A stretch of DNA of 64,000 nucleotides from Candidatus Poribacteria bacterium (GCA_965242965.1 OZ251518.1:2816001-2880000); one strand, 5' to 3'; positions 40,001 to 59,970 are shown, counted from the first letter of the stretch. Program-made: numbers and translations. The notes: generated from the sequence alone by a model not told the origin.

Positions 40001-40757
40001 TGAGGGTCCTTATGTTTTCGCCGGTAGTCACATCCCACAAACGGAGAGTTTTATCCCAACCGATTGCAAGGATGTCCCTATTCGGGCTGAAAGAAAAGCA
40101 CTCAACATCGCTCGTCTGTCCGTGAATCGTTCTTGTGTTTTCACCGGTGGCCACATCCCACAAACGGAGTGTATTGTCCAAACACACACTTGCTAGAAGC
40201 CTGCCATCGTGATTGAAGGCTATGCTCTCCACACTAGCCGTATGTCCCGTGAAGGTCTTTATGTTTTCGCCGGTGGCCACATCCCATAAATGGAGAGTAC
40301 TCCTACGTGAACTTGCCAAGGTAGCCCCATCCGGACTGAACACAATGTTAGTGTTATAGCCGGCATTCGTACGACTCGTGAATTTTTGCAGTGGTGTGCC
40401 GGTGGCGACATCCCACAACTGAATAGAGTGAATAGAGCTCTCACTCGCGCCTGCCAGAGTGCTACCATCAGGACTGAAGGCCACGCTGTCACAAGCTACC
40501 TGTTCACCGGAGTGATTCTCTTGAGTCAGTAGAGCGACTTCCTGATATGTCTCGGTATCATACAGCCAAATCCCCACGGCACTCGCTACCGCAAGCCGCG
40601 TGCCATCCGGTGAAAACTGAATATCATTGGCTCTGCCTTTGCCTAGCCGCGCGATGGCCCCTTCGGGTAACTGCCATTGGGATACATCCTGGGCGAAAAC
40701 ACCGGTGGCCAGGATAAGCATCAGCGTCAAAATGGACAAGAATAAACTGTGTTTCAT
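37014..40757 (-). CDS. Secreted WD40-repeat protein built from two tandem blocks
   Basis: Signal peptide; more than 20 GH..V.SVAFSPDG.TLAS...D.TIRLWD repeats; both blocks start with ARLGKG..DIQFS. Confidence 0.93.
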   Translation of the reverse strand: MKHSLFLSILTLMLILATGVFAQDVSQWQLPEGAIARLGKGRANDIQFSPDGTRLAVASAVGIWLYDTETYQEVALLTQENHSGEQVACDSVAFSPDGSTLAGASESSIHSIQLWDVATGTPLQKFTSRTNAGYNTNIVFSPDGATLASSRRSTLHLWDVATGENIKTFTGHTASVESIAFNHDGRLLASVCLDNTLRLWDVATGENTRTIHGQTSDVECFSFSPNRDILAIGWDKTLRLWDVTTGENIRTLTGHTETVDGIAFSPDGEILASASSDETIRLWDAGTGKQTKILKGPTSWVESVIFSPDGDTLAIASGYGVIRLWDVASGKNTDTVHGHTVSVKSVAFSPDGDTLASSAWGGTISLWDTNTGRKKKSLRGHSRQGNIVFSSDGSRLASAGHDRTIRIWDVPTGENTLTFRGYTDRPADEFYRTSVAISPDGGTLAGAGDKEIHLWDLETGKNTKTLVGHTDFVTSLDFSPDGGILASASEDKTIRFWNLTTGKSVKTLTGHTGVVTSLDFSPDGGILASGGQEDYFKSNNRMPDRTVRLWDVATGKNIQTFTVYIGVESVVFSPDAGSLAVGYHDKSVVLDIATGSRAQVFRGHTSGVNSVAFTPDGSTLASASGDGTVLLSKVIPIHEGPKARLGKGTIHDIQFSADNTRLAVASSVGIWLYDAETCQEVAMLTGHTAGVHNVVFSPDSSTLASASSDRTIRLWDVDTGTHIKTFARMSGWERDITFSPDGGTLAIASHDDVQLWDVATGENTLTLSADGIYQVLCVAFNHNGSILAASADPVIHLWDVPTGKHLKTLAQTGHTYHRRVAFSPNGDTLASANSNEIYLWDVATGTKVKSFKRRKASIRSIAFSSDGRTLTIAGSDNDNNIVRLWDERTGKRAFWETIIGRWPKTLKGHRNSVNSIAFSSDGNTIASATSEEIRLWNAHTGKHTKTIEGHTSRVGSVAFSPDGLTIASAGSSGNIYLWNGHAWRNTKTLTGHTDGVRNVAFSPDGRTLASASKDKTVRLWDASIGKNSLWESLFGKRNKVLSGHTHGVTSVAFNPSGALLASASSDSTIRLWNARNGKDIKVLTGHTDGVRNVAFSPDGSTLASGGVDNTIRLWDVITRENVKTLNIKVLNEHAQTISSIAFSPDGSTFASARFWDNTIRLWDTASGVPTKTLHTPVPGDLVFSPDGGTLASSSWHVIRLWDVASGTPLQLLTGHTDPISSLTFTPDGRTLASGSWDGTVLLWEITP

Positions 40758-44650: not shown

Positions 44651-45400
44651 CTAACGGGATTTCAAGCGTGCCCAAGTAGTTGCCAACTTATCGCGTGCAT
44701 TAACCGCCAGCGCGAAAGGTTGCTCCATGTCCGCTAGCAACTCTTCCTTCGTCAAAGCGTAGTTATACATTTTGATTTCATCAAGCGCGCCGGTGAGAAA
44801 GCGTCCACTTCCGCCGCGTGCGCCGATGAAAAGCGCGTCATCGTTCGGGCTCAACTTGCCTTTACAGTCCATCTCTGCTTCAAGTTCACCGTCGATGTAA
44901 AGCCGAATGGTATCGCCGTCCCATGTGCCAGCGAGGAAATGCCACTCGCCATCTTGAATACTGGGTCCGATGTTTTCGTCGTTGCATGCATCTGGCAGAT
45001 CGAAGAATTGCAAGATGGTGCCGCCGTTATAGAGCGCGGCGAGGTTATACAAACCCGATACCCAAGCGTTCCCCTTTTCAACGCCGCTCTGGATTGCTTC
45101 GCCGCCTTCGATAAACACCCAGAATTCAATGGTGAGTTCTTCGACAATGTCAAGGCTCCCGTGGTCTGGGATTTGCGCAGAGGTTTTTCCATCAAACGCC
45201 ACGGCTTTCCCGAAAACGCCATCAATCAACTCGGGTTTGCCCTTGAAAGTTGCGTCGTTGCCGAATTCGGACACGTCGGCGGCAACGTCGCCGCTCAGTT
45301 CATCAAGCGGCAGGTGCAGCACGAGTTCTTGCGCGTTGCACACCGTCACTACGCCGATGAACAGCAGCCCGCATAGGCATAAAATAGCTAGTTGTTTCAT
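44651..45400 (-). CDS. Secreted LamG/concanavalin A-like protein with C-terminal KLATTWxxLK tail
   Basis: GVFGKAVAFDG, TIEFW, WHFLAGTWDG, LYIDG, LDEIKMYNYAL, AVNARDKLATTWARLKSR; GGAGG RBS. Confidence 0.88.
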   Translation of the reverse strand: MKQLAILCLCGLLFIGVVTVCNAQELVLHLPLDELSGDVAADVSEFGNDATFKGKPELIDGVFGKAVAFDGKTSAQIPDHGSLDIVEELTIEFWVFIEGGEAIQSGVEKGNAWVSGLYNLAALYNGGTILQFFDLPDACNDENIGPSIQDGEWHFLAGTWDGDTIRLYIDGELEAEMDCKGKLSPNDDALFIGARGGSGRFLTGALDEIKMYNYALTKEELLADMEQPFALAVNARDKLATTWARLKSR

Positions 45401-45812: not shown

Positions 45813-46832
45813 CTATTCCGCATCGTAAATCGCAAGCTTCCTACGCAACGTCTTGCGGGCAATGCCCAAAACCGCCGCGGTCCGCGCCTGATTCCTACCC
45901 AGGCTCTCGTAAGTCTCTAGGATATACCGCTTTTCTACTTCCGCCAACGTGAACCCAATCGGGGCAATTGGCTGAAATTGCTTTTGAGAGAACTGAGTTT
46001 CTGACGAAGTGCCGACAGGTTGGAGCTCCGGTTTCCGAATTCTAACGGGGAGGTGCATCGGTAAGATAACGTCTCCTTGTGCGAAGACGATTGCACAAAC
46101 GACGACTTTTCTCAACTCGCGGACATTCCCCGGCCATGCGTAATTTTCGAGGCGTGCTAAAGTTTCGGGAGCGATGCCGCCGACATCTCGCCCCAAGCGT
46201 TGGCTTTCTTCTGCCAGAAAGTAGTCTACCAACAACGGGATGTCCCCTACCCGTTCCCGGAGCGGCGGCAAATCGATAGTAAACCCCTCCACCCGATAAT
46301 AGAGATCTTGGCGAAAGGTGCCAGCACTCACCTCGGCCTCAAGGTTGCGGTTGGTGGCAGCCACCAGTCGGACATCAACGTAAATCTTTTTTGTGCCGCC
46401 GAGGTGTTCAATCTCGCCGTTCTCTAACGCTCGAAGCAATTTGGGTTGAAGGAGTAGGGACAGTTCCGCGATTTCATCTAGGAATAATGTGCCCTTGTCT
46501 GCCAATTCAAACTTACCGGGCTTCTCTTCGTATGCGTCCGTATACGCGCCCCTCTCATGCCCGAACATTTCGTCCTCCATGAGCGTCGCCGGAATTGCAG
46601 CACAATTGACCGTAATCTTCTTTTTTTCGGCGCGACGGCTATTCGTGTGCAAGGCTTCTGCGACGAGCTCCTTGCCGGTGCCCGTTTCACCTTGAATCAG
46701 CACGGAGATGGGGACATCCGCGAACAGATCGATTTGCTTGAGGACTTCAAGCATCTGTGGGCTCTTGCCAATGATGCCGGCATAATTGCCCTTCAAGGTA
46801 TCTCTGGCATTTTTCCCGGTGTCGTTTTTCAC
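45813..46832 (-). CDS. Sigma-54-dependent activator (AAA+ plus Fis HTH) with no N-terminal sensor domain
   Basis: GETGTGKE, GHERGAYTDA, LFLDEI, FRQDLYYR, WPGNVREL, NQARTAAVLGI. Confidence 0.92.
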   Translation of the reverse strand: MKNDTGKNARDTLKGNYAGIIGKSPQMLEVLKQIDLFADVPISVLIQGETGTGKELVAEALHTNSRRAEKKKITVNCAAIPATLMEDEMFGHERGAYTDAYEEKPGKFELADKGTLFLDEIAELSLLLQPKLLRALENGEIEHLGGTKKIYVDVRLVAATNRNLEAEVSAGTFRQDLYYRVEGFTIDLPPLRERVGDIPLLVDYFLAEESQRLGRDVGGIAPETLARLENYAWPGNVRELRKVVVCAIVFAQGDVILPMHLPVRIRKPELQPVGTSSETQFSQKQFQPIAPIGFTLAEVEKRYILETYESLGRNQARTAAVLGIARKTLRRKLAIYDAE

Positions 46833-47349: not shown

Positions 47350-48120
47350 CTACGGTAAGTCCAGAAACGTATAAGGGTCAATCCCATCAGAAAAATCCAG
47401 AATGCGAATCCCTGGTGGGGTTTCACCATTGAGCATTTGTTCTGTCTCGGCTTCGGAAACGCCGGAGCCGACAAGTATCGCGCTATCAACAGAATGAGCG
47501 TCACCATTTTCTATCTCTTCCCACCTCTCTTCATAGCGGAGATACACGGTGTTCGGATAGAGTGGCAGCACCAAGCCGTTTTCAAAAGTGCCGCCCTCCA
47601 GCTCGGTGTGGCCCTGGTTCCAGAGTTTAATGAAAACACGGGTCATCAACTCAAACTTGATGCGGATATCTTCATTAAACCGCGCCATCACTTCTTCGGG
47701 CCGGTGCCACGACACATGGAGTGGCGGGAAATCGGATGGCACTTCGGGATATGGACCGAAACCAAAGGGTGAAACGCGCACCGCCTCGACAGGTGCCTCT
47801 TCAGGCGGTGTCTCCAGCCATGAGATGCCCTCGGTTTCACCGATGTCCCTCTCCGCCGGCACCGCCGCGGTGATTTCGGGTAACCTTTCTTCACCATCAT
47901 TAGTGACAGCAACTGTCTCGGTGTGTGCGTCAAGACGCATATCACCGTTTGTTGGATGCTGTGGTTCAGTGTCGGAGTTTTCCTTCTCCTGCACCGCAAC
48001 GGGTGGCGTGGGGAGTGAGGCGTTGAACCGCTTCAGTTCCCACTGCGCATAGAAGGAGATACTCCCGATTATCGCGAGCGCAAGGATGACCGCACTGACG
48101 ATGACGTTACGGGGTTTCAT
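47350..48120 (-). CDS. Hypothetical membrane-anchored protein (WELKRFNASLP N-terminus, distinct C-terminal domain)
   Basis: AGGAGG RBS; TM helix; VSPFGFGPYPEVP domain. Confidence 0.75.
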   Translation of the reverse strand: MKPRNVIVSAVILALAIIGSISFYAQWELKRFNASLPTPPVAVQEKENSDTEPQHPTNGDMRLDAHTETVAVTNDGEERLPEITAAVPAERDIGETEGISWLETPPEEAPVEAVRVSPFGFGPYPEVPSDFPPLHVSWHRPEEVMARFNEDIRIKFELMTRVFIKLWNQGHTELEGGTFENGLVLPLYPNTVYLRYEERWEEIENGDAHSVDSAILVGSGVSEAETEQMLNGETPPGIRILDFSDGIDPYTFLDLP

Positions 48121-48291
48121 GACTTGACTACCTCCTTTCTGTAGGGCAAACGGATATGAAAATTCAGATCGAAATCGGCGGAGAGGAACAGGCACTCGCA
48201 ATGCCGCGGCGCACGCGGGGGACAAACCTCCGGTAGGAGAGACCTCCCGGTCTCGATTCCCCCGCACTGTGTGCCAAGCAGTTATCGCATG

Positions 48292-49044
48292 TCACTCTCC
48301 AATCCGCGGTGTCCAATTGAATTGGTCGAGAGTCCCTTCTTCCAGAGCCAATTGCTTAGATTCCTTGAGATATTCAAGGTGATCTGCCACGACTTGAATC
48401 CCTTCTGGAATTACAAGCCCGGGCATGAGCCGCAAAAGGGCTTCTGTGCTGGCAATGGCATCGTCAATTGTTGCCGTTCCCGCATTGCCGCGTCGGACTG
48501 TCTCAACGAGGATATCCACATCCGGAGAATCCCCCCATTGTTCACGCCAGGCTTCGTCAAGGCGTTGGTAAGCATACGCCGGATTGGTAGCAAGATAAGC
48601 ATTGTAATCCGCAAATCCTGCTTCGACTTTCGCCATGTCGTAAGGCACTTCTGGCTGCCCTTGCGTGAATTCTTCTTCCGATTCAACCGGCACCGTTTCG
48701 GTTTCTTCCAGAAACAGGTCGAGCGCGCTTCCAGTAAACTCCGACGGCGGTTCTTCAACAACTGAAAAGGTTTCTGCGCTTCTCGCCGAATCGGTGCCCT
48801 GTCCCTCTGGTGCTGCTTTCAGCAGTGGGCTTTCGGAAACCGAGGCGGTTGGCGGTTGTGGGACTTCCTGGTGAGTGTTCTCCGACAGTGCGGCAGCATT
48901 CGGTGCCGTGTCTACTGAGGGAACTTCGGGCAGCGATGCGTCAAACCGCTTTATTTCCCACTCGACGTAGATGAAAAGGCCGGCACAGACAAGGATAACC
49001 AGGATAGAAATTCCCGCAATCCGTTTCAAGTCTGCTGAGTTCAT
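48292..49044 (-). CDS. Hypothetical membrane-anchored acidic protein (family B)
   Basis: AAGGAG RBS; paralog of 50889-51629 (EVPYDMAKV...GDSPDVDILVET). Confidence 0.8.
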   Translation of the reverse strand: MNSADLKRIAGISILVILVCAGLFIYVEWEIKRFDASLPEVPSVDTAPNAAALSENTHQEVPQPPTASVSESPLLKAAPEGQGTDSARSAETFSVVEEPPSEFTGSALDLFLEETETVPVESEEEFTQGQPEVPYDMAKVEAGFADYNAYLATNPAYAYQRLDEAWREQWGDSPDVDILVETVRRGNAGTATIDDAIASTEALLRLMPGLVIPEGIQVVADHLEYLKESKQLALEEGTLDQFNWTPRIGE

Positions 49045-49098
49045 AATGTTTCTCCTTCCCTACTGGGTTGAGGTTGCGTCTGTCCTAATCCACTTAGG

Positions 49099-49368
49099 TC
49101 AGGGTGTTTCATAAATCCGTGTCGGTAGTTATCCCCCCTTGGAGGACGGGCGAATACCGAAAGGCATCGGGTCCACCTCTGTAGTTCGGGAGCGGGCGCT
49201 CCCGAACAGGTCAGGATCAGGCGATCCTGACCTACAGGGGTGAGGCGGTCTGCTAGCCAAACGCATGGCGAGGGACAGGCCCTCGCCCTACGATAAAGGG
49301 CGGCGTTTTTTTCACCGCAGCGCGGGGGCCTGTCCCCGCGACGTTGAACGATTTATGAAACACCCTCA
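49099..49368. mobile_element. TIR-bounded core REP cassette (270 bp)
   Basis: TCAGGGTGTTTCATAAATC...GATTTATGAAACACCCTCA; imperfect flanks CTTAGG/ATTAGA. Confidence 0.85.
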
Positions 49369-49403
49369 ATTAGATCTGGACAGTTTTGCGATGCCAAGAC
49401 AGG

Positions 49404-50336
49404 CTACTCTTTCTCTGGCAGCAAGAAAGCTTCTACGCTAAAGTGGAAGCGTATTGTCTCCGTTTCAAGAGAGCCTTGCTTCCGGAGCAAATTGCTGATG
49501 TTTTTGAGCCTTTCAAGCGAACGTTCCGCTGTTTGAATCATTTCAGCATACTTTTGGGCATCCGTCTCTTTCATTACCTGAAGTTGCAGTTCTGTCAACT
49601 CAATCACCTCGGGATAGGTGGCTTTCTTCTTCGGTGCGAGAGCGAGCACGGTGTCAACTATTTTTTCAACGAGCGGATGTTCACCATATTGCAAGGCGAG
49701 TAGCGCGACCAGTTCAGCCCGTGCCGCTTCTGCATCCGTGTCGCGAAGTTTTTCAAAAGCCGCTGCATGCTTGCGCCCTAACCGAAGCACCTCTGCATCT
49801 GTGCCGTGAAGTTTTTCAAAAGCCGCTACATGCTTGCGCGCCAACCGAAGCACCTCGCTCTTGCTCGCCGGGACAGGTTTTTCCACGTCGGTTTTCGGCG
49901 CGTGACTGTGGTGATGCAACGCTTTTTCCATAGCGGCGAACCGTTGGAATGCCTCTTGGTGACGATGTATCTGGACCGAATACTTTTTGACATTGATCTT
50001 CGTTAGCATTCGGATTTCTAATTCAGACACCCGTTTCACATCCGAAGGATGCTCCGTTCCGTTCTGGCTAATGCGGAAGTAGAGCGGCACCCATTCTTCG
50101 GCGAGGCGATGTCCGCCAAACAAGGTGTTGGCAACCTGTTGAAGTTCGGCGCGTGCCGCTTTCGCATCCGTAGCGAGGAGTTCTTGAAAGCGTGTCAGTT
50201 CCTCACCCCAAAGCGTATTGCTGACGAGGCTGAGTTGCGGGGGCACAGTTTCTGAGGTGTCTTCTAACTCACCAAAAGAAAACGTTCCGAGCGTGCAAAG
50301 GACCAGGCATAGCAGGTTCATGATTCCAAATCGCAT
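49404..50336 (-). CDS. Hypothetical secreted helical-repeat protein (family A)
   Basis: AAGGAGG RBS; signal peptide; paralog of 51664-52518; 63-bp tandem duplication at 49731-49856. Confidence 0.8.
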   Translation of the reverse strand: MRFGIMNLLCLVLCTLGTFSFGELEDTSETVPPQLSLVSNTLWGEELTRFQELLATDAKAARAELQQVANTLFGGHRLAEEWVPLYFRISQNGTEHPSDVKRVSELEIRMLTKINVKKYSVQIHRHQEAFQRFAAMEKALHHHSHAPKTDVEKPVPASKSEVLRLARKHVAAFEKLHGTDAEVLRLGRKHAAAFEKLRDTDAEAARAELVALLALQYGEHPLVEKIVDTVLALAPKKKATYPEVIELTELQLQVMKETDAQKYAEMIQTAERSLERLKNISNLLRKQGSLETETIRFHFSVEAFLLPEKE

Positions 50337-50713
50337 GAGAAACCTCCTTGTGAAAAGGCAGGGCGCGCTTTTCGGCGTTAAAGGCACCCCGCTACTCCTC
50401 ACGATTTTTCAGATACCCCAGTCTAAAGACTGGGGATTGTATTCCTTTTAGAGGACACGTTCTCCAGCGACTGGCGGCTTTGCGTTTCGTAGAGGTTGGC
50501 AACCCAACGCTCTCCACGCGACCCCTCAGCAGGGTCAAGAGTGTTATTTGTATCTGGTAGGTGTTTTTGAACAGCGATTATCTCCCTCGCATCAGGTCCC
50601 GTTTCGTCGGTATTGGCTTGCGTATTATTTCACGTCGCACCAAGCAGCGACGGTGGACTGCGTTGTTCACTCGAACGCAGCATTCACACTCAAACCTAGC
50701 AGACTGGTATAGA

Positions 50714-50742
50714 TTATACCACATTTTTCAACCGAATGCAAA
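50714..50742 (-). promoter_or_regulatory. Sigma-70 promoter followed by a ~370 nt leader
   Basis: TTGCAT-N17-TATAAT with extended TG. Confidence 0.6.
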
Positions 50743-50888
50743 TCTTTTTTTCTCATGTTTGCACTGACAAAAGAGGGCGGACTTTCCTCCCCAGACCCGT
50801 ATGGGGTTTCCAGTCCGTAAATTTAGATGAAGATGGACACACGTATCCACAAGACCGCGGGTGGCCGTGAAATACGATGGCACAATCT

Positions 50889-51629
50889 TCATCTGATATC
50901 GCGTCCGTAATTGAGTTGGATAGTAGCCCCCTCTTCAAGGGCTAATTGTTTGATTTCGTGGAGATATGCCAGATGATCAGCGACTATCTGCACCCCTTCA
51001 GGGGCAACAAGCCCGTGCATGAGCCGCAAAAACGCGCTTGTGTTGTCAATAGCATCGTCAATTGTGGCGGTGCCATCATTGAAACGGCTAAAGGTTTCAA
51101 CGAGAATATCGACATCCGGCGAATCCCCATATTGCTCCCGAAATGCCTCGTCTAAGCGTTGATAGGCATAACCCGGGTCTGTTTCCAGATAGGCATTGTA
51201 ATCATCAAATCCCGCTTGGACCTTCGCCATGTCGTAGGGAACCTCCGGTTCGCTCTCCATGAAGTCTTCGGGTTCAAGTAAATCCCCATCTGTTTCTTCG
51301 ATAAACAGGTAGGGGGGCTCATCAAGCGGTGCCGATGGCGGTTCTTCGGCAACCGAGGCAATTTCTGCAAGTCCGGCGGCATCGGTTTCGGTGTTGTCCG
51401 ATTCGGCTGTCCACCGCGATGTTTCGGAAACCGATAAGGCGGCGGTCTGGGTGCGCTCCTGGCGTGTCCGTTCGGAAGGGCCGGCGGTGTCTACCGGGGG
51501 AACTTCGGGCAGCGATGCGTTAAACCGCTTTAATTCCCATCGTTCGTAAACAAAAAAGCCAGCACAGATAAGGACGGCTAGGAGGAGCGCGCCGCCGATA
51601 ATACCGAGATTCTGTCGTCGCAATTTCAT
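50889..51629 (-). CDS. Hypothetical membrane-anchored acidic protein (family B)
   Basis: AAGGAG RBS; TM helix; WELKRFNASLPEVP. Confidence 0.8.
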   Translation of the reverse strand: MKLRRQNLGIIGGALLLAVLICAGFFVYERWELKRFNASLPEVPPVDTAGPSERTRQERTQTAALSVSETSRWTAESDNTETDAAGLAEIASVAEEPPSAPLDEPPYLFIEETDGDLLEPEDFMESEPEVPYDMAKVQAGFDDYNAYLETDPGYAYQRLDEAFREQYGDSPDVDILVETFSRFNDGTATIDDAIDNTSAFLRLMHGLVAPEGVQIVADHLAYLHEIKQLALEEGATIQLNYGRDIR

Positions 51630-51663
51630 GTCGTTCTCCTTTCAGATTGGGGCGGCCCCTGTA

Positions 51664-52518
51664 TTATTTCCCAGATAAAGAAATATTGAACGGCGTTTTC
51701 TGCGCCAGTTTGCCTTGGCGTTCCAGCAGTTTGCTCAGTGCCTTGAGCTGCTTCAAGCCGGACGTAAGTCCTGCAATCTGCTCTGCCTCCCTTTCAGGTG
51801 CCGTGTCTTTCAGCATCTGTATGTGCCACTCCGTCAACTGGATGAGCTCTGGAAAAGTGGCTTCCTTCTCACGAGACAGGCGGAAAAACAGTTCAATCCA
51901 CCCTTCTTTGAGCGGGTGCTCGCCAAACATGAGCGACGCGAATGCAGCCAACTCCGTGCGTGCGGATTTCATATCCGTGAAGAGGTATTCCTCAAAGGCA
52001 GCGGCATGGGCGTTCATCTGCTCAATACGCAAGGCAGTCGCTGCATCTCGCATTTTTGTCCGTTCGCCGGGGGAGTGTTTTTCAAGGAGTAACTCTCCAG
52101 TGTCACCGACTTTCGCCAGAGTGTCAAGGCGTTCAAGTGCTTCTCGGTGGCGTTGTATCTGTTTCGCATATTTCGCCGCATTGATAGCTGTCAGCATGCG
52201 GATTTCCAATTCAGATACACGTTTGACATCCGAAAGATGTTCGCTCCCCTCACGGGAGATGCGGAAATAGAGGGGCACCCATTCTTCCGCGAGCGGATGT
52301 CCACCGAACAGCGTTCCTGCAACGCTTTGGAGTTCAGCGCGCGCCGTTTCCGGTTCGGTGCGGAGCAGTTCCCAAAACGTTTGGAGCGGCTCCGTCCAAA
52401 TCGTCTTGTTTATCCGGTAAGTGGGTGCGTGCCGGTGCGACTCGGGGGCAGCGGCACTTTCCGTTAAGAAACTGACTATTAGCAGCGCGATTATCGCACT
52501 AAAAACGGTCCCTTTCAT
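51664..52518 (-). CDS. Hypothetical secreted helical-repeat protein (family A)
   Basis: AAGGAG RBS; start MKGTVF; two ARxEL...FGxHPL..W..L(Y/F)FR(I/L)SRE repeats. Confidence 0.8.
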   Translation of the reverse strand: MKGTVFSAIIALLIVSFLTESAAAPESHRHAPTYRINKTIWTEPLQTFWELLRTEPETARAELQSVAGTLFGGHPLAEEWVPLYFRISREGSEHLSDVKRVSELEIRMLTAINAAKYAKQIQRHREALERLDTLAKVGDTGELLLEKHSPGERTKMRDAATALRIEQMNAHAAAFEEYLFTDMKSARTELAAFASLMFGEHPLKEGWIELFFRLSREKEATFPELIQLTEWHIQMLKDTAPEREAEQIAGLTSGLKQLKALSKLLERQGKLAQKTPFNISLSGK

Positions 52519-52775
52519 TTTTTCTCTCCTTTGACACCTTAAGGGTGCCTTGATTTTCTTCTCGCACGCCGGATTCCTTTCTGTCTCGCGTGTTTTGAGG
52601 TGAGCATACTTGCATCGAGACCAGGAGGTCTCTCCTACCGGCATGCACTTGGTAACAAAGCGTGGAGGTGAGCATGCCCCCCTGCCGAGCTGTATATCCT
52701 GTGAGTGTGCTGTCTTTCCTTGAGAAGGCAGCAGTCACACGGGACAGACCGGCACGCTTTTCTATAAACTATTGT

Positions 52776-52791
52776 AGCAAGTTCCGTGCCA
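52776..52791 (-). promoter_or_regulatory. Sigma-54 (-24/-12) promoter
   Basis: TGGCACGGAACTTGCT matches TGGCACG-N4-TTGCW exactly. Confidence 0.85.
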
Positions 52792-53305: not shown

Positions 53306-55315
53306 ATTAAATGCCCGGATAACCTTCACTAACAATCTTTGTCTGAATTCAATAGCGTTCGGATCTCCGAGGATGATGAAAAAGTCGGTGCCGGCATAAC
53401 CGGAACGCCGGAGTGCGAAATAGATGTTCACCCCTTCCGCTTGCCATATCAGCCGACTGCCAAGGCTTAACGCCGGGCTGAAGTCATACGTCAGTGTTAA
53501 AATCTGTTGATACCGCTGCTCAAAATGCCACTGGATTTGGGTGGTAAAGCCCGCCGTGAACCCGTAAGCGCGGAGATTGAGATTTCCGCTGATGCGATGA
53601 AGCCGTTCACCAGCCTGCTCTCCACCTGCATAATTGATACTGACATTGTTAAACCGGTCTGAAGTCCGGATGCCCAAACCGATTGTGAAAACGCTATCGG
53701 TGAATTCTTCAAATCGGCCACCGTTCCAATGGACAGAAAGGGAGTAATCGCTGTGCGTCAAAAGGCTCGCGTATGCCGAAACGCTCCGCCGGAAAACCTC
53801 CCCTTCGTCAGTGTTCGATGCTTCGGACAGGACAGAGAGAAGTGCATTGCGTAGAAATCCTTCGCGCCATTCGTTACGGAGCCATCCACCGAGACTTGCG
53901 CCGCGATACCCGGTAAACGGATGATAGCCGAGATGATTGACGAAATCCGCGGCGGTAAAAAAGGCGGAAAGGTAGGCAAACCCCACCCCGCCGTTGTAAC
54001 TGAAAGCGGCATATCCCGAACTGCCATCGGATTCGCCTGCCCAACTTTGTGCAAAGTTTCCTTGTAGAGAAAACTTCCCCTGGCGCACGTTCCCCGAGAA
54101 ATAGCCAACGTTGTTTGATGACACTTCTCGCTGGTTGTATGACAGCAACGCCGCGCTGATAGTGGATGTAGCCGAAAACGACTGGGACGCGCGGAGAATC
54201 ACGTTCTGGTTATTTCGATGATAGGTGCCTAATGTCCCCACGGATGTGTTTTTACCGATTTTCCCGAAGAGGTTCAGCCCGCCATCCATGTCTACTATCC
54301 GCCGCGAATGGAAATAACTACCGAGACGATAGACATTGCCCCCTTCCAAAAAGAAGGGCCGCCGGTCTGACACGTAGCGTTCACCGTAGGAGAAGTCTAT
54401 CCCTTCCACAGCCTGCTCAAGGTTCTCAAAATCGGGGTTGGCAGTGCCGATGAGCCGGAGCTGCGGTGTTACTTCAAAGCGAAGATTGCCGCCGGCACGC
54501 GCCGTGTATGTCCGTTCTTCTGTCTCGCTGATGCCGCCGATGAGATACGGCAAGAACTTCACCTCCCGTTTGCGCGGCGGCGGCAGCACGTCTATCCAAT
54601 GTCCATCGTTTTCACGGAACTCCTGTAGCCCTAGGTTGCACCACCACGAACGTTCGCCGGTGCGCTGTTGCAACCTGTCAACGTTAATCCCCATCCGAAT
54701 AGGCTTCGTTGTATTCGGATAATCCAACATCTGCCAGGGGATTTCCATTTCAACAACCCATCCATCTGCTACGATTTGCGCGGCGACGTTCCAAAGTCCG
54801 ATCCACTCGCTTTTCTCAGCGCGCCCGGTGGCGAGGTGTGCATATTTCGTGCCGAGGGGATTCGCCATGAAGAAGTTCCTATCGCCGAATTGGTGCGTAT
54901 GGAACGCATCAATGCTGAACGACACCCAGTCTTCGTCGCGGATGCGCGCCTGGTCCTTCGTCTGGCGTGCCACGATTTTATCAGGCATCTCGTCAGAGAG
55001 ATGGAGCCCGACGTAGATGGCTTTGTCCGTGTAAACGAGCCGGAAGACGGACTGATTTCTCGCTGGTTTTTCGGTGCGTTCATCGGTGAAACCCACGCCT
55101 CGCGGTGCATCTTGCCAACAGGTATCGTCAAGAATCCCATCTATCATCGGTGGCTGTGCGGTTTTGTGTGCAGGAAGTTGTTTTTGAACCGTTTGTTCTC
55201 TATCGGGACGCGAGAGCCCACCTACCGGTTCGGGACTAGAACCCTCTCCTACAGCTGCAATGGCGGTGAGGTGGCATAGAGAAAGCCCGATGAGCAGGGG
55301 CATCATGAATCTCAT
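53303..55315 (-). CDS. CBM9-like sugar-binding domain plus DUF5916-like outer-membrane beta-barrel protein
   Basis: Signal peptide; PMIDGILDD.CW, WVVEMEIPW, NPDF..., RRPFFLEG, FHSRRI; alternating beta-strand C-terminus; ATGA overlap with the activator gene. Confidence 0.75.
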   Translation of the reverse strand: MRFMMPLLIGLSLCHLTAIAAVGEGSSPEPVGGLSRPDREQTVQKQLPAHKTAQPPMIDGILDDTCWQDAPRGVGFTDERTEKPARNQSVFRLVYTDKAIYVGLHLSDEMPDKIVARQTKDQARIRDEDWVSFSIDAFHTHQFGDRNFFMANPLGTKYAHLATGRAEKSEWIGLWNVAAQIVADGWVVEMEIPWQMLDYPNTTKPIRMGINVDRLQQRTGERSWWCNLGLQEFRENDGHWIDVLPPPRKREVKFLPYLIGGISETEERTYTARAGGNLRFEVTPQLRLIGTANPDFENLEQAVEGIDFSYGERYVSDRRPFFLEGGNVYRLGSYFHSRRIVDMDGGLNLFGKIGKNTSVGTLGTYHRNNQNVILRASQSFSATSTISAALLSYNQREVSSNNVGYFSGNVRQGKFSLQGNFAQSWAGESDGSSGYAAFSYNGGVGFAYLSAFFTAADFVNHLGYHPFTGYRGASLGGWLRNEWREGFLRNALLSVLSEASNTDEGEVFRRSVSAYASLLTHSDYSLSVHWNGGRFEEFTDSVFTIGLGIRTSDRFNNVSINYAGGEQAGERLHRISGNLNLRAYGFTAGFTTQIQWHFEQRYQQILTLTYDFSPALSLGSRLIWQAEGVNIYFALRRSGYAGTDFFIILGDPNAIEFRQRLLVKVIRAFN

Positions 55316-56388
55316 GCATCTTCCTCCTGAAACATTCTCAATTTGCTGCGCAAAGTCGGACGGCTCACGTCTAAAACCGCGGCGGTTTGCGCCTGATTGC
55401 CATCCAGCCGCGCGAGGGTTTCTAAAATGTATATCTTCTCTACCTGCTTCAAGGTTAACCCCACCGGGATGGCCACGGTAGGTTGGTTTTGCGATGTAAG
55501 CATTGACTGGCCCGGGTCAGGTGCATAAAGTTTTTTCGGTAAATGCTCCGGTAAGATAAGGTTCCCTTCCGAAAGGATGAGTGCGTAAGTGACGCTCTTT
55601 TTGAGTTCTCGGATATTTCCGGGCCAGGCGTAATCTTGAAGGAGCTGGAACGTTTGTGCGGCGAATCTGCCTACCGGTTCATCGGTAGTCGGATGGGGCG
55701 CGTGCGCCTTTAACCGTTCGCTTAGTGGTGGCAGCCGCATAGAAAACCGCGTGAGTTGCGGCGGCTCTTGTGAGAAGTGTTCCACGAGCTCACGGATATC
55801 CTCTTTCCGTTCGCGCAGCGGCGGCAGCGAAATAGAAAACCCCTCAAGTCGATGATAGAGGTCCTCCCGAAATTCGCCTTCGTGAACGGCTTGTTCTAAG
55901 TTGCGGTTGGTTGCGGCGAGAATTCGGACATCCACCGGAATCGGTGCTTTGCCGCCGAGGCGTTCCACCTCGCCTTCCTCCAGCGCGCGCAGCAACTTCG
56001 GTTGGAGTGACAGGGGCAAATCGCCGATTTCATCAAGGAACAGTGTCCCCTTGTCGGCGCGTTCAAACTTCCCAATCCGCTGCTGCTTCGCATCGGTAAA
56101 GGCACCCTGTTCATACCCAAACAGTTCGCTCTCAACGAGGCTCTCCTGAAGCGTCGTGCAGTTGACGACGACGAGCGGCCCCGTTGCGCGGGGGCTGTTG
56201 GTATGTAGGGCGCGTGCTACTAACTCCTTGCCTGTCCCTGTTTCACCGTAAATCATCACGGGGACATCGTGTCTTGCTAGCAACTCAATCTTTTTTAGGA
56301 CTTCAAGAATCTGTGGGCTGCTGCCGATGATGGCACTGTAATCTCCATCTAATGAATCTCTTGTCCTCTCGGCTGTTTTGCGCTGCAT
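55312..56388 (-). CDS. Sigma-54-dependent activator (AAA+ plus Fis HTH) with no N-terminal sensor domain
   Basis: GETGTGKE, ESELFGYEQGAFTDA, LFLDEI, FREDLYHRL, WPGNIREL, GNQAQTAAVL. Confidence 0.92.
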   Translation of the reverse strand: MQRKTAERTRDSLDGDYSAIIGSSPQILEVLKKIELLARHDVPVMIYGETGTGKELVARALHTNSPRATGPLVVVNCTTLQESLVESELFGYEQGAFTDAKQQRIGKFERADKGTLFLDEIGDLPLSLQPKLLRALEEGEVERLGGKAPIPVDVRILAATNRNLEQAVHEGEFREDLYHRLEGFSISLPPLRERKEDIRELVEHFSQEPPQLTRFSMRLPPLSERLKAHAPHPTTDEPVGRFAAQTFQLLQDYAWPGNIRELKKSVTYALILSEGNLILPEHLPKKLYAPDPGQSMLTSQNQPTVAIPVGLTLKQVEKIYILETLARLDGNQAQTAAVLDVSRPTLRSKLRMFQEEDA

Positions 56389-56433
56389 GTTATCGTCCTT
56401 TCATGCCTAACGGCACTGTTATATCAAATTACG

Positions 56434-57005
56434 TCAGGGTGTTTCATAAATCGCTCAATGTTGCGGTGAAACCCGCTCGGATGCGCGTGTGGCATCCGAG
56501 GGCCCCGCGCTACGGTAAAAAAACGCTTTCCCTTCACGTAGGGCGAGGGCCTGTCCCTCGCCATGCTTGATTGCCGCTTTCACCGTAGGGCGAGGGCCTG
56601 TCCCTCGCCATGCACCGGGCTGAGCCGCAAACATCCGGGGTCTCTGGGCTGCGGACGTTTTCCACAGCGGTTGAGAGATCGCGGGGGACAGGCCCCCGCG
56701 CTACGGTAACAAATAAGAAATCGTCACCGTTTACCGTAGGGCGAGGGCCCTCGCATGCCACACGCGCATGCGAGAGGGTTTCCCTCGCCATGCCGAAGGT
56801 CTGTAAGACCTTAATGTCTATAGCATCCTGCACCGCAGCGCACCCTAAGGTCCTTTAGGTCCTTAATGTGCCTTGACTCCCTTGGCTGCCGCTTGATTAA
56901 GGTCCTAGCGGACCTTGAAAACAGTGGCATGTCTGTTTTTCTATAGACATTTAGGTCTTAAAAGACCTAAAGAGGCATCCATAACGGATTTATGAAACAC
57001 CCTCA
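56434..57005. mobile_element. TIR-bounded composite REP cassette (572 bp) with 7-bp target duplication AATTACG
   Basis: TCAGGGTGTTTCATAAATC...GATTTATGAAACACCCTCA, flanked by AATTACG at 56427-56433 and 57006-57012. Confidence 0.9.
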
Positions 57006-57064
57006 AATTACGTTGAACGAACCCGCCGGCAGACTCCTGGCATTTGCATCTGGCCTGTTTCGTC

Positions 57065-59185
57065 TCAATCCAAACCGGTTGCAACCAGAGTGATGCGCAC
57101 CAACTCTTCGGTTTGCAATTCATCGTTGTAGGAAAGCCCGAAGATAACTTGGGCATCCGATGCGGCATTCTGGATAACCTGCATCGCGCTATCCAATTCC
57201 GCCATCATGAAATCCTGTGGCGCGACAACTTCTACCAGCAGACCGGAGGCTTTGGCGAGATTCGCGCCTTCGAGAAGCGGCGAAGAAACGGCGGATTCAG
57301 CCGCGATGCGCCCGCGCTCCTCTCCCACCGCCTGTCCGATGCCCATCGCCGTCCGCCCTGGAACCCGTAAGACAGATTCAACATCGGCGAAGCCAACGCT
57401 AACCTCATGCTCGGCATTTACGATGTTCCCGGTGATGAGTTGAACGCCTCGGATGAGGAGTTCATCGCTAACGCGGAAAACCTCCTGAGTCCGTTTGACA
57501 CTTGTGCCAGAACTTTCGGCAATCGCGTCCCCTTCGTCAATCAGGTGTTGGTTGCCGACAACGATGAGGGAATCTGCAGCGGTTCGGAGTGCTTTCACGC
57601 CGTTTTCGGCTTGCGCCGCGCGCTGCTCTCCCTCAGCATGGAAAGGCAAGGTTACCATCGCAACGGTTAATACGCCGTATCTGCGAGCGAGCGATGCGAT
57701 ACGCGGTGCTGCAACGGTGCCGGTGCCGCCGCCCATGCCAGCAACGATGATAACCATGTCCGCATCCGAGACGAGGGTTTCCAATGCCACGCTATCTTCC
57801 TCCGCTGCCTCTCGTCCAACTTCCGAATTGCCTCTGGCACCAACCCCTTTGGTGGCTTTCTGCCCAATCTGGATTGGTGTGATATCGTCGTAGGCATCCA
57901 AGGCACCGCTGTCGGTGTCAACCGCATAAAATTCAAGTCCGGTTAACCCGGCTTCACGCATGCGATTGACAGCCTTTCCGCCGCCGCCTCCGACACCGAT
58001 AATCTTCACGGTGACAGGTGTCGCCTTCAATTTCATCGGCATGATGAGATAAGTCTGTCCCGATTCACCTACCGGTTCCGCAACTGCCGGATTTAATTCC
58101 CCAGAGCACTTCAGTTGGATACTTTCGGTATCCAGATGCGAGAGTGCCTCCATCAACAACCGCGCATCAAACCCAATCCGCAGGTTTTTCGTGCAAGAAT
58201 CGACAGAGACGGTTTCGTGTGCTCTGCCGAGCCCCGGGGTCTTCGCCGAAAGCCGAATGTTCTTTTCCGGCTCGTTGATTTCCAAGCAGATGGCACAGCC
58301 TTTTTTCAGTTCCGATAACAGGGAGATGCGGCGCACCGCCTGCAGCATCGTCTCGCGCTTGAATACGGTGCGGACTTGCATCGCCCCGGGTTTCGGGATA
58401 ATCTTCTCGTAGTCCGGGTATTCATCATCTATCAAGCGCGCTGTCAGCGTGGTGCGCTCATCGGCGATGCTCAGACACCGCGTCGGGTTAAACGGTTCGC
58501 TGCTCTGGAAGAACGAAACGTTCACCGAGTCCGCATCGGCGAAAATTTGGGGGATGGCTTGCACCGCCTTGAGCGGCACAATGAACCCTGTCACCCCTTC
58601 CGGCGGTGTCAGCGCATCACAGCGCACCAGCGCGAGCTGCCGGCCATCAGTTGCAACTACCTCCGTCCTATCGCCAAGGAAGTTAAAATAGAGCCCGCAC
58701 AGCATTTTCCGCTTTTCTTCCTCGGTGGATGCTGCGAATGCGGTTTTGTGGATAACCTCACGCAGCGTCTGGAGGTGGATGTCCAAAGGCTCTCCCTCAA
58801 ACACGGGGAGCTGTGGGAACTCTGTCGCCGGTAGCCCCACAATGATGAACGTTGGGATGAACGTTGAGGTATCAACGCTGTTCTCACACGTCAACTTCAC
58901 TTGGTTGTTCGCCGGTGTGGTGAGGCGGAGCTCCGAGTCTGGCAGCACCTTGACGATGTCCGTCAGTTTCTTAGCGGGGACGGCAATCGCGCCTTCTTCC
59001 AGAATAGTCCCATCCACCTTAGTGCGAATGCCTACCTCCATGTCCGTGGCGGAGCACTCAATTTTCCCTTCATCCGCCTTGATAAGGACGTTTGAAAGCA
59101 TTGATGAAGGACTGTGCCCATTTGCAACACCCTGCACTATCTGCAGCGAGTGCAAAAGGGGTTCTTTTTGAAACGTTAATTCCAT
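57065..59185 (-). CDS. dnaN-ftsZ: DNA polymerase III beta clamp - FtsZ fusion protein
   Basis: Residues 1 to ~387 are DnaN (SATDMEVG, VATDGRQLAL, ARLIDDEYPDY, IGFDA, YLIMPMKL). The rest is an FtsZ core (IIGVGGGGG, AGMGGGTGT, PFHAEG, FADV, LVATG). No internal stop; AGGAG RBS. Confidence 0.92.
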   Translation of the reverse strand: MELTFQKEPLLHSLQIVQGVANGHSPSSMLSNVLIKADEGKIECSATDMEVGIRTKVDGTILEEGAIAVPAKKLTDIVKVLPDSELRLTTPANNQVKLTCENSVDTSTFIPTFIIVGLPATEFPQLPVFEGEPLDIHLQTLREVIHKTAFAASTEEEKRKMLCGLYFNFLGDRTEVVATDGRQLALVRCDALTPPEGVTGFIVPLKAVQAIPQIFADADSVNVSFFQSSEPFNPTRCLSIADERTTLTARLIDDEYPDYEKIIPKPGAMQVRTVFKRETMLQAVRRISLLSELKKGCAICLEINEPEKNIRLSAKTPGLGRAHETVSVDSCTKNLRIGFDARLLMEALSHLDTESIQLKCSGELNPAVAEPVGESGQTYLIMPMKLKATPVTVKIIGVGGGGGKAVNRMREAGLTGLEFYAVDTDSGALDAYDDITPIQIGQKATKGVGARGNSEVGREAAEEDSVALETLVSDADMVIIVAGMGGGTGTVAAPRIASLARRYGVLTVAMVTLPFHAEGEQRAAQAENGVKALRTAADSLIVVGNQHLIDEGDAIAESSGTSVKRTQEVFRVSDELLIRGVQLITGNIVNAEHEVSVGFADVESVLRVPGRTAMGIGQAVGEERGRIAAESAVSSPLLEGANLAKASGLLVEVVAPQDFMMAELDSAMQVIQNAASDAQVIFGLSYNDELQTEELVRITLVATGLD

Positions 59186-59280
59186 TTTGCAAATCTCCTA
59201 TCTCTCTCAAGAGTTATCAACAGAACAATTCTGCTGAGTCCGGCTCAGCAGATGTGCTGTTAGGTTTTACTGAATAGTGT

Positions 59281-59296
59281 TGCAATTTCCGTGCCA
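59281..59296 (-). promoter_or_regulatory. Sigma-54 (-24/-12) promoter of dnaN-ftsZ
   Basis: TGGCACGGAAATTGCA, exact consensus; 5' UTR hairpin CTGCTGAG-N5-CTCAGCAG at 59231-59251. Confidence 0.85.
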
Positions 59297-59409
59297 ACTT
59301 CAAAACCTGCGTAGTTACGGGAGTTTCGCAATTGCGTAACGTAAAATTTTTGTCCCTAGTGGAAAGAATATTGCCATAGCGGCGTTCATTGTGCGCTGTC
59401 CCGTTCTTG

Positions 59410-59970
59410 CCGTAGGAGAGCCCTCCTGGTCTCGATGAGGTTCGTATCGGGACAAGGATGTCCTTCCTACCGGAATCCCTCGGGCCCACCTCTGTAGTTC
59501 GGGAGCGCCCGCTCCCGAACGGGTTAAGCGCGCGGCCGCCTCATCTACCGTAGCGCGGGGGCCTGTCCCCCGCGAGCGTTCGACCCGCGCGAAAAACACA
59601 CGCAAACCAACGCCGTTTCCCCAACCGACGCACGGCGAGGGACAGGCCCTCGCCCTACGGGGAAACGGAAACGGCCTTGCATACCGTAGCGCGGGGGCCT
59701 GTCCCCCGCGAGCGTTCACGTGCCCAGGACTGTAGTTCGGGAGCGCCTGCTCCCGAACGGTTCAGGAGCAGGTGCTCCTGAACTACAGGAGGGATGAGCG
59801 CGCGGCCGCCTCATCTACCGTAGCGCGGGGGCCTGTCCCCCGCGAGCGTTGGGGTGCGCGGGCATGAACGATGGCGAGGGACAGGCCCTCGCCCTACGGT
59901 GAAGTACCGTTTTTTATCGCAGCGCGGGAGCCTGTCACCGCAACGTTGAGCGAGTTATGAAACACCCTAA
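59410..59970. mobile_element. Composite REP cassette, right TIR only
   Basis: C, C-variant, D, B and A modules, then TTATGAAACACCCTAA followed by AATAAAA. Confidence 0.75.

Follow-up and report, generated by a model that had tools for sequence, protein, structure and literature searches.

What is a protein that begins as a DNA sliding clamp and ends as a cell-division tubulin, and what could it do for the bacterium that encodes it? The question is raised by a gene on the minus strand of a 64,000-nucleotide stretch of the genome of an uncultured, sponge-associated Candidatus Poribacteria bacterium (GCA_965242965.1 OZ251518.1:2816001-2880000; "the window" below, with positions counted from its first letter), in which a complete beta clamp (DnaN) runs in frame into the globular core of FtsZ. 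The clamp and FtsZ are central hubs of replication and division, and a natural protein joining both is undescribed in the literature we searched. We find that the DnaN-FtsZ fusion is a real, accessory, selectively maintained and lineage-restricted gene. As for its role, we favour, with a probability of about 35%, the reading that the fusion would be an inducible product and a feedback regulator or effector of its own sigma-54 circuit, through which division and replication proteins would be linked to transcription.

The gene is a single open reading frame (ORF) of 706 aa with no internal stops, the stop codon being included in its coordinates. Its parts are as follows.

57065..59185 (-): coding sequence of the DnaN-FtsZ-core fusion, 706 aa (ORF, Pfam, NCBIfam, 13 clusters)
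58028..59185 (-): beta-clamp half, residues 1-386, with domains I (1-127), II (137-258) and III (269-386) (Pfam/NCBIfam, fold)
58010..58027 (-): junction or hinge, residues 387-392, KATPVT (low model confidence; bridged by independent contigs)
57068..58009 (-): tail-less FtsZ core, residues 393-706, with Tubulin 393-550, a variable insert at ~551-565 and FtsZ_C 610-706 (Pfam, fold)
57713..57715 (-): codon of Val491, which turns GGGTGTG into GGGTGTV; strain-specific (1/9 aligned fusions)
57383..57406 (-): T7 loop region, residues 594-601, EVSVGFAD against EINVDFAD (alignment)

All five Pfam domains of the fusion exceed their gathering cut-offs: DNA_pol3_beta (1-127, 67.0 bits), beta_2 (137-258, 72.8 bits) and beta_3 (269-384, 69.7 bits), followed by Tubulin (393-550, 135.3 bits) and FtsZ_C (610-706, 71.8 bits). 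The protein passes the NCBIfam dnaN model TIGR00663 (235.0 bits against a cut-off of 137.65) and narrowly misses the ftsZ equivalog TIGR00065 (275.1 bits against 295.2). Its clamp half terminates in YLIMPMKLK, the codon of K387 occupying 58025-58027, and the first FtsZ strand, S1 (VKIIGVGG), starts at residue 393 after a hinge of ~5 residues. The C-terminus reads LVATGLD, where the canonical FtsZ of the same genome runs ~120 residues further through a linker to a DIPAFLR tail; the fused core has neither the C-terminal linker nor the membrane-tether peptide. A preliminary description of the window, made from the sequence alone, had reported one uninterrupted ORF in which a full clamp continues into an FtsZ core, an end at LVATGLD without linker or tail peptide, and the motif variants GGGGGKA, DTD, GGGTGTV and SVGFAD; all of this is correct for the window's protein. 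Because the fusion fails the FtsZ equivalog features of score, T7 loop and tail, it is, on sequence grounds, best called DnaN fused to an FtsZ-core paralogue and not an FtsZ.

An AlphaFold2 model built from a 76-row alignment folded both halves confidently, with a mean predicted local distance difference test (pLDDT) of 80.3; a model from only 10 rows, all close relatives, was poor (mean pLDDT 45.1, with ~25-30 in the clamp half) and was discarded. The low-confidence spots were the two lineage insertions, the junction at 386-389 (pLDDT below 50) and the variable insert at 558-564. Together with a predicted template modelling score (pTM) of 0.51, the low junction pLDDT suggests a flexible hinge with no fixed pose between the halves. 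In Foldseek searches, the modelled clamp half aligned with 7ybd, 3t0p and 6ams at TM(target) 0.82-0.85 over 386-391 columns, and the FtsZ half with solved FtsZ structures at TM up to 0.95 (2rho_B), with a root-mean-square deviation of 1.6-2.8; no solved chain found by Foldseek spanned both halves.

A misassembly or a stop at the junction is excluded by two sets of data. The same five-domain protein occurs in 13 protein clusters (P0001-P0013) on separate contigs, at 60-100% identity and 687-710 aa, and Logan contigs from other studies bridge 58009-58030 without a gap (X10 record 13, covering 57738-58701, and X5 record 28, covering 57904-58099). Several of the datasets with matching Logan contigs are labelled as sponge metagenomes, and related proteins carry the source name Candidatus Poribacteria.

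The distribution of the gene is narrow. In a survey of 176 genomes of the phylum, with the best 150 of 702 rows examined, matches spanning both halves were found in 3/3 genomes of the window's genus (G000, G066 and G065) and in 0/173 other genomes; a missed full-length fusion is unlikely because such a match would rank at the top of the rows. The G065 copy is interrupted by the end of its contig. In a HMMER scan of 1.84 billion representatives, the window's cluster alone has this architecture among the best 150 matches, and the protein search found no longer form of the fusion.

The fusion is accessory because the genome holds canonical copies of both genes elsewhere on the same contig: a dnaN of 372 aa (273.7 bits) and a tailed ftsZ (394.8 bits; G000 C1:3163417-3164364). 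That the fusion could be the only dnaN or ftsZ copy of this genome is thereby excluded, and the accessory status proposed in the preliminary description stands, as does its placement of the gene outside the dnaA and dcw contexts.

Trees were built for both halves, and they point to different ages. Identity between the clamp half and the DnaN of the same genome is 63%. A tree of 27 clamps, chosen from those found, groups the fused clamps as sisters of the canonical DnaN of the genus (100/99) on a several-fold longer branch; the clamp half evolves several-fold faster than the housekeeping clamp. By this sister position, the clamp half is a recent dnaN duplicate specific to the lineage of the genus. 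For the FtsZ half, identity to the FtsZ of the genome is 54%. In a tree of 22 cores, all from this phylum, every tail-less core of the family falls into one clade (95/96), which includes a stand-alone 308-aa core of genus g3 (G069), sister to the fusions (90/88), as well as two Pfam-confirmed cores joined to extracytoplasmic function (ECF) sigma factors: that of a 551-aa protein in g2 (G067) and that of a 1486-aa protein in g4 (G070) which also carries a DNA polymerase III (Pol III) alpha part. Judged by this placement, the FtsZ half belongs to an older clade of tail-less FtsZ paralogues.

The stand-alone g3 core occupies the syntenic position: the FGE-sulfatase/BNR gene is again its divergent neighbour, two sigma-54 elements with 1 mismatch each precede it, and an orthologous sensor-less activator (60% identical) follows. 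This layout argues that a circuit of sigma-54 promoter, tail-less FtsZ core and activator predates the fusion. The fusion arose in two steps. An old ftsZ duplication in the family gave the tail-less FtsZ-core paralogue, a state kept in g3, where the paralogue stands behind a sigma-54 promoter and adjoins a sensor-less enhancer-binding protein (EBP) of the PspF/RtcR type; the lineage of the window's genus subsequently joined a fresh dnaN duplicate in frame to the 5' end of the paralogue through the hinge of ~5 residues.

Ratios of nonsynonymous to synonymous substitution (dN/dS) were calculated by the Nei-Gojobori method (NG86) between three species. They came to 0.235, 0.357 and 0.264 in the three species pairs for the clamp half and to 0.242, 0.225 and 0.229 for the FtsZ half, against 0.071 for canonical dnaN and 0.062 for the canonical ftsZ core. 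Both halves are thus under purifying selection, which is equal on both and ~3-4-fold relaxed relative to the canonical genes. The relaxation (3-4-fold against the parents), the restriction to one genus-level lineage, the strain-specific G491V in the GTP signature and the indel-rich segments would suit a recent neutral fusion that is decaying without a function of its own. Such decay is nevertheless very unlikely: dN/dS is well below 1 in both halves and in 3/3 pairs, all 13 clusters, down to 60% identity, have an unbroken frame, and the promoter and ribosome-binding site are conserved.

The regulatory elements of the gene and its neighbouring activator are the following.

59281..59296 (-): sigma-54 -24/-12 promoter element TGGCACggaaaTTGCA (exact consensus; conserved in G066)
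59340..59377 (-): A/T-rich block with an imperfect inverted repeat, ~45-95 nt upstream of the -24 element (conserved in G000/G066)
59230..59252 (-): leader hairpin with a 9-bp stem, terminator-like, between promoter and start codon (sequence)
59195..59199 (-): ribosome-binding site AGGAG, 9 nt before the ATG (TAGGAGATTTG-AAAATG conserved in G066)
56389..57064 (no strand): 676-bp spacer between fusion and EBP, with short palindromic repeats (genome copy counts)
55312..56388 (-): sensor-less sigma-54 EBP, AAA+ and HTH_8, 358 aa, GAFTDA loop (Pfam; synteny)
52776..52791 (-): second exact sigma-54 promoter, downstream of the EBP operon (consensus; equivalent in G066 and G065)

The sigma-54 promoter noted in the preliminary description holds up: the element matches TGGCAC-N5-TTGCW exactly, 96 nt before the ATG, and rpoN is present in the genome. 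G000 and its sister species G066 share the -24/-12 element, the A/T-rich upstream block and the ribosome site in conserved form. Exact sigma-54 matches number 2 in the window and 18 in the genome, against 5.7 expected for the genome from base composition. Sites with at most one mismatch number 5 in the window against 2.5 expected, a count that 12 of 100 shuffles reach and that is not significant alone, so the promoter argument rests on the two exact conserved sites. A sigma-70 promoter scan of 56200-59700 found no site. The A/T-rich block is a candidate site for the activator or for integration host factor. The leader hairpin may represent an attenuator or a repeat that has inserted; the G066 leader (L025) has a hairpin at the same place, unrelated in sequence.

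The activator is a syntenic partner of the fusion. It adjoins the fusion in G066 and G065 and the stand-alone core in the g3 genome G069. The order of a divergent FGE-sulfatase gene, the FtsZ core with or without DnaN, and then the EBP is kept in G000, G066 and G069, and the short G065 contig keeps the part from fusion to EBP. Sensor-less EBPs make up 2/8 of the full-length EBPs in the genome, and both lie inside the window. The protein next to the fusion matches an RtcR/PspF-type profile (PADLOC) from position 160 on, without a CARF sensor.

Sensor-less EBPs such as PspF and HrpS are restrained in trans by a protein partner, which is often the main product of their own regulon. The tail-less core is repeatedly tied to transcription activators: it stands beside an EBP in g1 and g3 and is fused to an ECF sigma factor in g2, g4, g5 and g6. 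In addition, complex prediction for the EBP and the FtsZ core gave a score of 0.33, against 0.00 for the best of 3 controls, with the runs agreeing in at least 78% of contacts and a partner pLDDT of at least 78; this mark was reached by 58/80 solved complexes and 2/110 mismatched pairs, and with scores up to 0.60 by only 7 of those 80 solved complexes and by both passing mismatches. The prediction lends weak support to an EBP-core contact. The partner control of sensor-less EBPs, the ties of the core to activators and the weakly positive score are our reasons for favouring a feedback role.

The architecture, the ancestry of the two halves, the purifying selection, the conservation of the promoter and the synteny are observed; from them we infer each of the following binding steps and the physiological output. 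Like PspA towards PspF, the fusion would be the main product of its own sigma-54/EBP circuit and at the same time feed back on it. The FtsZ core would dock on the neighbouring activator, on the housekeeping FtsZ, or on both, and its clamp half would supply dimerisation and access to clamp partners, so that the circuit, and probably also cell division, would become sensitive to the state of the replication and division proteins. The product itself would be part of neither the replisome nor the Z ring: it has no tether peptide, its T7, T1 and NTD residues are changed, and its clamp evolves fast. As in PspF-PspA circuits, the activator consists of AAA+ and helix-turn-helix (HTH) domains only and a sigma-54 promoter serves the adjacent gene; unlike there, the candidate partner is a DnaN-FtsZ protein and not PspA/IM30, and its binding is weakly predicted.

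Several points weigh against this feedback reading. The EBP-core score lies in a range that is more often wrong than right and comes from small alignments (4 and 10 rows). The shared neighbourhood of EBP and fusion could reflect co-regulation only, a 676-bp repeat-filled spacer parts the two genes in G000, and the cargo behind the second sigma-54 promoter differs between species. A PspA-like domain is absent. A pure EBP-partner model leaves the clamp half unexplained because g3 does without a clamp. The G491V change of the window's protein, in the tubulin signature, could mark functional decay in this strain. Finally, 32 changed invariant FtsZ positions, many of them at the T7/bottom face and in the nucleotide loops, mean that docking on the housekeeping FtsZ would not be assured.

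The residue changes were read from an alignment of 9/13 fusion clusters (P0005-P0008, ~94% identical to others, were left out), with 13 canonical clamps and 11 canonical FtsZs of the phylum as reference sets for invariant positions. The 32 changed positions of the FtsZ core lie mainly at the T7/bottom face (583-598) and in the nucleotide loops (404, 423, 513, 517, 544 and 547); N423D is common to every tail-less paralogue. The T7 loop of the fusions reads S/T-V-G/D-F-A-D: its Asn is lost in 9/9, its first Asp is replaced by Gly in 8/9, and its last Asp is kept in 9/9. The T1-loop Asn is replaced by Lys or Glu in 7/9, and NTD has become DTD in 9/9. GGGTGTV is found only in the window's protein and, since the other 8 aligned fusions read GGGTGTG, is a strain peculiarity and not a family trait; it may be mildly deleterious. 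Of the altered FtsZ motifs singled out in the preliminary description, those in T7, T1 and DTD therefore extend to most or all aligned fusions, and the one in GGGTGTV to a single strain (1/9).

In the clamp half, 15 positions invariant in the 13 canonical clamps differ in at least 7/9 fusions. R24, which we take to be the DNA-contact arginine of E. coli beta, is Arg in 13/13 canonical clamps and His or Leu in 7/9 fusions, including that of the window; P0012 and P0013 keep Arg. A cluster of changes (D94N/R95Q/E97K/G103S) lies beside an insertion of 8-12 residues (~104-112) found only in the shallow clade of the window, and an 8-residue insertion in domain II (~228-240) is common to all fusions. 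The motifs TDGRQL, EYPDYEKIIP and YLIMPMKL are kept, the chain running on into FtsZ after ~5 residues; TDGRQL, PDYEKIIP and MPMKL presumably line the clamp's partner pocket.

These changes bear on the role first proposed for the protein, that of an inducible division inhibitor or checkpoint whose clamp-scaffolded tail-less FtsZ heads would co-assemble with FtsZ filaments or cap them. In a variant, the heads would possibly act from clamps loaded on DNA, so that division is blocked while replication is perturbed, and the EBP would be an upstream switch only. The lack of a C-terminal linker and C-terminal peptide, the T7 pattern (Asn to Ser/Thr in 9/9, Asp to Gly in 8/9, last Asp kept), the conserved sigma-54 promoter, the preserved clamp motifs MPMKL and TDGRQL and a core 54% identical to the cell's own FtsZ all speak for such a brake. 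According to PMC3684127, GGGTGTG and NVDFAD are the GTP-binding and hydrolysis motifs of FtsZ, and mutations in the T7 loop disrupt polymerisation and not GTP binding, with D209A forming aggregates. The natural tail-less FtsZ of Agrobacterium tumefaciens, FtsZ1, does not polymerise alone and enters FtsZ polymers by co-polymerising with, and depending on, full-length FtsZ (10.1101/412759), a precedent that counts for the favoured feedback reading as well; it is dispensable, and its deletion gives no division phenotype, which speaks against a brake. Further difficulties are that the change of R24 to His or Leu in 7/9 fusions weakens the idea of DNA-anchored FtsZ for this strain, that the window's clade carries the 8-12-residue insertion in the region of the domain-I edge strand, that the top-face nucleotide loops are changed too, and that the ECF sigma fusions of the same core in sister genera are left unexplained. 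On balance, we consider a division brake somewhat unlikely.

The same source allows a closer comparison. FtsZ1 (Atu_4673) and the truncated FtsZs of R. meliloti and M. gryphiswaldense (10.1101/412759) resemble the fusion in having a full GTPase core without linker or peptide beside a full-length FtsZ; unlike them, the fusion has altered T7, NTD and T1 motifs, sigma-54/EBP control and a covalent beta clamp. The fusion is likely most similar to these tail-less accessory FtsZs of Alphaproteobacteria, with an independent origin, which is likely because the paralogue clade adjoins the phylum's own FtsZ in the tree.

A third role suggested at the outset, a TubZ/PhuZ-like filament that moves DNA and is anchored to it by the clamp, has a single argument in its favour, namely that a tubulin-like polymer might be tethered to DNA through a clamp. 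By sequence the core is an FtsZ proper (TIGR00065, 275 bits) with the phylum's FtsZs as nearest relatives, the locus has no plasmid or phage context and no TubR-like neighbour, and the T7 and interface changes argue against autonomous polymerisation. We found this reading unsupported and give it next to no credence.

The fusion sits in a wider and apparently undescribed habit of the family, in which copies of DnaN, FtsZ and DnaE are fused to one another and to sigma factors. The FtsZ-core paralogue is joined to an ECF sigma in G067, G070 and P0167, and likewise in 25 clusters whose proteins have a Pol III alpha core as well. In these last, which are triple fusions (P0270-P0294, 1346-1486 aa), the FtsZ core again has no tail; they are exemplified by L058:5832-10292 (+) in G070 and a 1435-aa frame in G077. 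Their Pol III alpha part has the PHP, polymerase, fingers and HhH regions and no OB or C-terminal domain, and the genomes that encode them each also keep a canonical dnaE of ~1180 aa. The ECF sigma-FtsZ protein of G067 (L049:1387-3042) stops 15 residues into a DnaE-like part. In sister genera, an ECF sigma is fused N-terminally to a complete beta clamp (~572-590 aa; P0014-P0120, for example the Pfam-confirmed P0019); DnaN and sigma-70 domains occur together in 83 of 120 listed matches, with frames of 582-588 aa in G154, G147 and G090, and the clamps of these proteins form a clade of their own.

Many genomes of the family have tandem or extra dnaN genes, with as many as 3 clamp genes in one genome (G068 C1:2707218-2709480, G069 C1:2762690-2764973 and many g5/g6 genomes). 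Matches to the FtsZ GTPase domain alone (query 387-586) lie in frames of 412-417 aa (G077 C1:1599988-1600563, G154 C1:3685226-3685792 and G147 C1:172523-173143). Contig C2 of G066 carries a further dnaE (1156-aa frame) and a dnaN that is divergent (36% identical), at 87316-88086 and 107004-108074; this contig could be a plasmid-like replicon or contamination. The ECF sigma lineages of the DnaN type and the FtsZ type are only 28-31% identical. In the window's genome, the closest homologue of the DnaN-type sigma (G000 C1:403566-406490, 975-aa frame) carries, in the same chain, a transmembrane segment and a large propeller-like domain, and that of the FtsZ type (G000 C1:4679793-4680374) is a stand-alone frame of 194 aa.

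Some high-scoring candidates were rejected as relatives of the fusion. P0121, P0125, P0132 and P0192 are tandem FtsZ-FtsZ proteins (731-840 aa) whose score comes from two cores, and P0295 is an unrelated low-GC protein of 1720 aa with two FGE-sulfatase domains and a tailed FtsZ. The tandem proteins and P0295 occur in unrelated organisms.

Clamps tied to sigma factors invite the view that the fusion couples transcription to replication: a DNA-loaded clamp, its FtsZ core carrying the activator, would fire sigma-54 promoters along with replication, much as T4 gp45 does. The sister-genus ECF sigma-DnaN fusions (83 of the 120 matches listed) and the weak predicted EBP-core contact agree with this view. 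Sliding clamps activate transcription in T4 (PMC7892883) and are reported to do so for Mu (PMC12867686). In T4 (gp45-gp55-gp33) and Mu (MuC-beta clamp), a sliding clamp is coupled to the transcription apparatus through non-covalent contacts and factors of the sigma-70 family; here the clamp is fused to FtsZ and a sigma-54 activator gene adjoins, and the ECF sigma-DnaN proteins of sister genera are the nearest analogue. The EBP, however, retains an HTH_8 domain of its own for binding DNA, the clade of the window has lost R24, and the g3 circuit exists without a clamp, all of which makes clamp-coupled transcription improbable.

The trimmed copies can also be seen as bait. As a target mimic, the duplicated clamp and FtsZ core would bind attackers such as phage inhibitors or natural products, and would either soak them up or report them to the transcription activator. 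This would account for a trimmed beta clamp, a tail-less FtsZ core and a Pol III alpha without its C-terminal domains being wired to transcription factors across the family, for the faster yet constrained evolution of the fusion, and for another ECF sigma in the window's genome with a large C-terminal extension of transmembrane and propeller-like parts. Second dnaN copies, mypR and griR, confer self-resistance to DnaN-binding antibiotics (PMC10817943), and phage proteins that target FtsZ exist (PMC11897509). The extra clamps griR and mypR are like the clamp of the fusion full three-domain additional DnaNs, that of the fusion being a recent duplicate of the host dnaN; unlike them, its C-terminus runs into FtsZ, its R24 is mostly lost, it carries two insertions and it lies outside a biosynthetic cluster. 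The mimic reading rests on analogy, no biosynthetic cluster or defence gene was found beside the locus, and PADLOC assigned 0 families to the fusion; we regard it as doubtful. PADLOC also found nothing for the ECF-FtsZ protein and most neighbours, its matches being the EBP's generic RtcR/PspF one and two marginal ones.

By analogy with the same idea, trimmed duplicates of the clamp, FtsZ and Pol III alpha, essential hubs that are common targets of phages and antibiotics, wired to transcription activators could serve the whole family as integrated target-mimic sensors, an extension that we hold to be equally doubtful. The wiring would be a covalent ECF sigma in most genera, and a clamp-FtsZ double mimic with a sensor-less sigma-54 activator in the genus of the window. 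If this were true, cells would turn an attack on their replication or division proteins straight into gene expression, and the system would parallel, in bacteria, the integrated decoys that plant immune receptors carry.

The preliminary description knew of no DnaN-FtsZ fusion, and our searches agree: no natural DnaN-FtsZ, ECF sigma-DnaN or ECF sigma-FtsZ fusion was described in the open-access papers and preprints searched (supplements excluded), and the public sources hold no name for the fusion proteins. The fusion combines an accessory clamp with an accessory tail-less FtsZ, kinds of protein that are known, in an architecture undescribed in that literature. Whichever mechanism applies, it offers a natural handle on the coupling of replication, division and transcription, with cloneable proteins in which that coupling can be tested.

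Some observations concern the activator and the spacer. IncA, considered as a parallel to the neighbouring activator, was rejected, being a RarA-type AAA+ protein and not an EBP (10.1101/2025.01.13.632716). The activator and its g3 orthologue share an insertion (residues ~205-240) in which the LPPL-x-ERL motif of the AAA+ lid occurs a second time. Both read GAFTDA in the loop for which we take GAFTGA to be the usual EBP motif. The spacer, only 163 bp long in G066, is filled in the window with repeats present in ~200 to >1500 genome copies. Among them are GC-rich palindromes (GGGCGAGGGCC-N-CCCTCGCC; hundreds to >1500 copies), found at 56464-56985 and in many intergenic regions, and a ~200-copy element at 56790-56985. 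These repeats give rise to spurious ORFs in which the peptide RSRGTGPRATV recurs, and metagenome contigs show extreme depth over them.

The neighbours of the fusion are the EBP, the FGE-sulfatase/BNR protein and a CBM9/DUF5916 protein. Five ORFs without Pfam matches follow the second sigma-54 promoter at 47350-52644 (-), including two paralogous pairs (326/332 aa, 46% identity, and 246/250 aa, 59% identity); the G066 locus lacks this block and has a Laminin_G_3 gene in its place. A second sensor-less activator of 339 aa (45813-46832 (-)), 52% identical to the first and conserved in G066, adjoins a Laminin_G_3 protein and two cyclophilins (also 44651-45400 (-)). Further along, 37014-40757 (-) encodes a 1247-aa protein made up almost entirely of WD40 beta-propellers.

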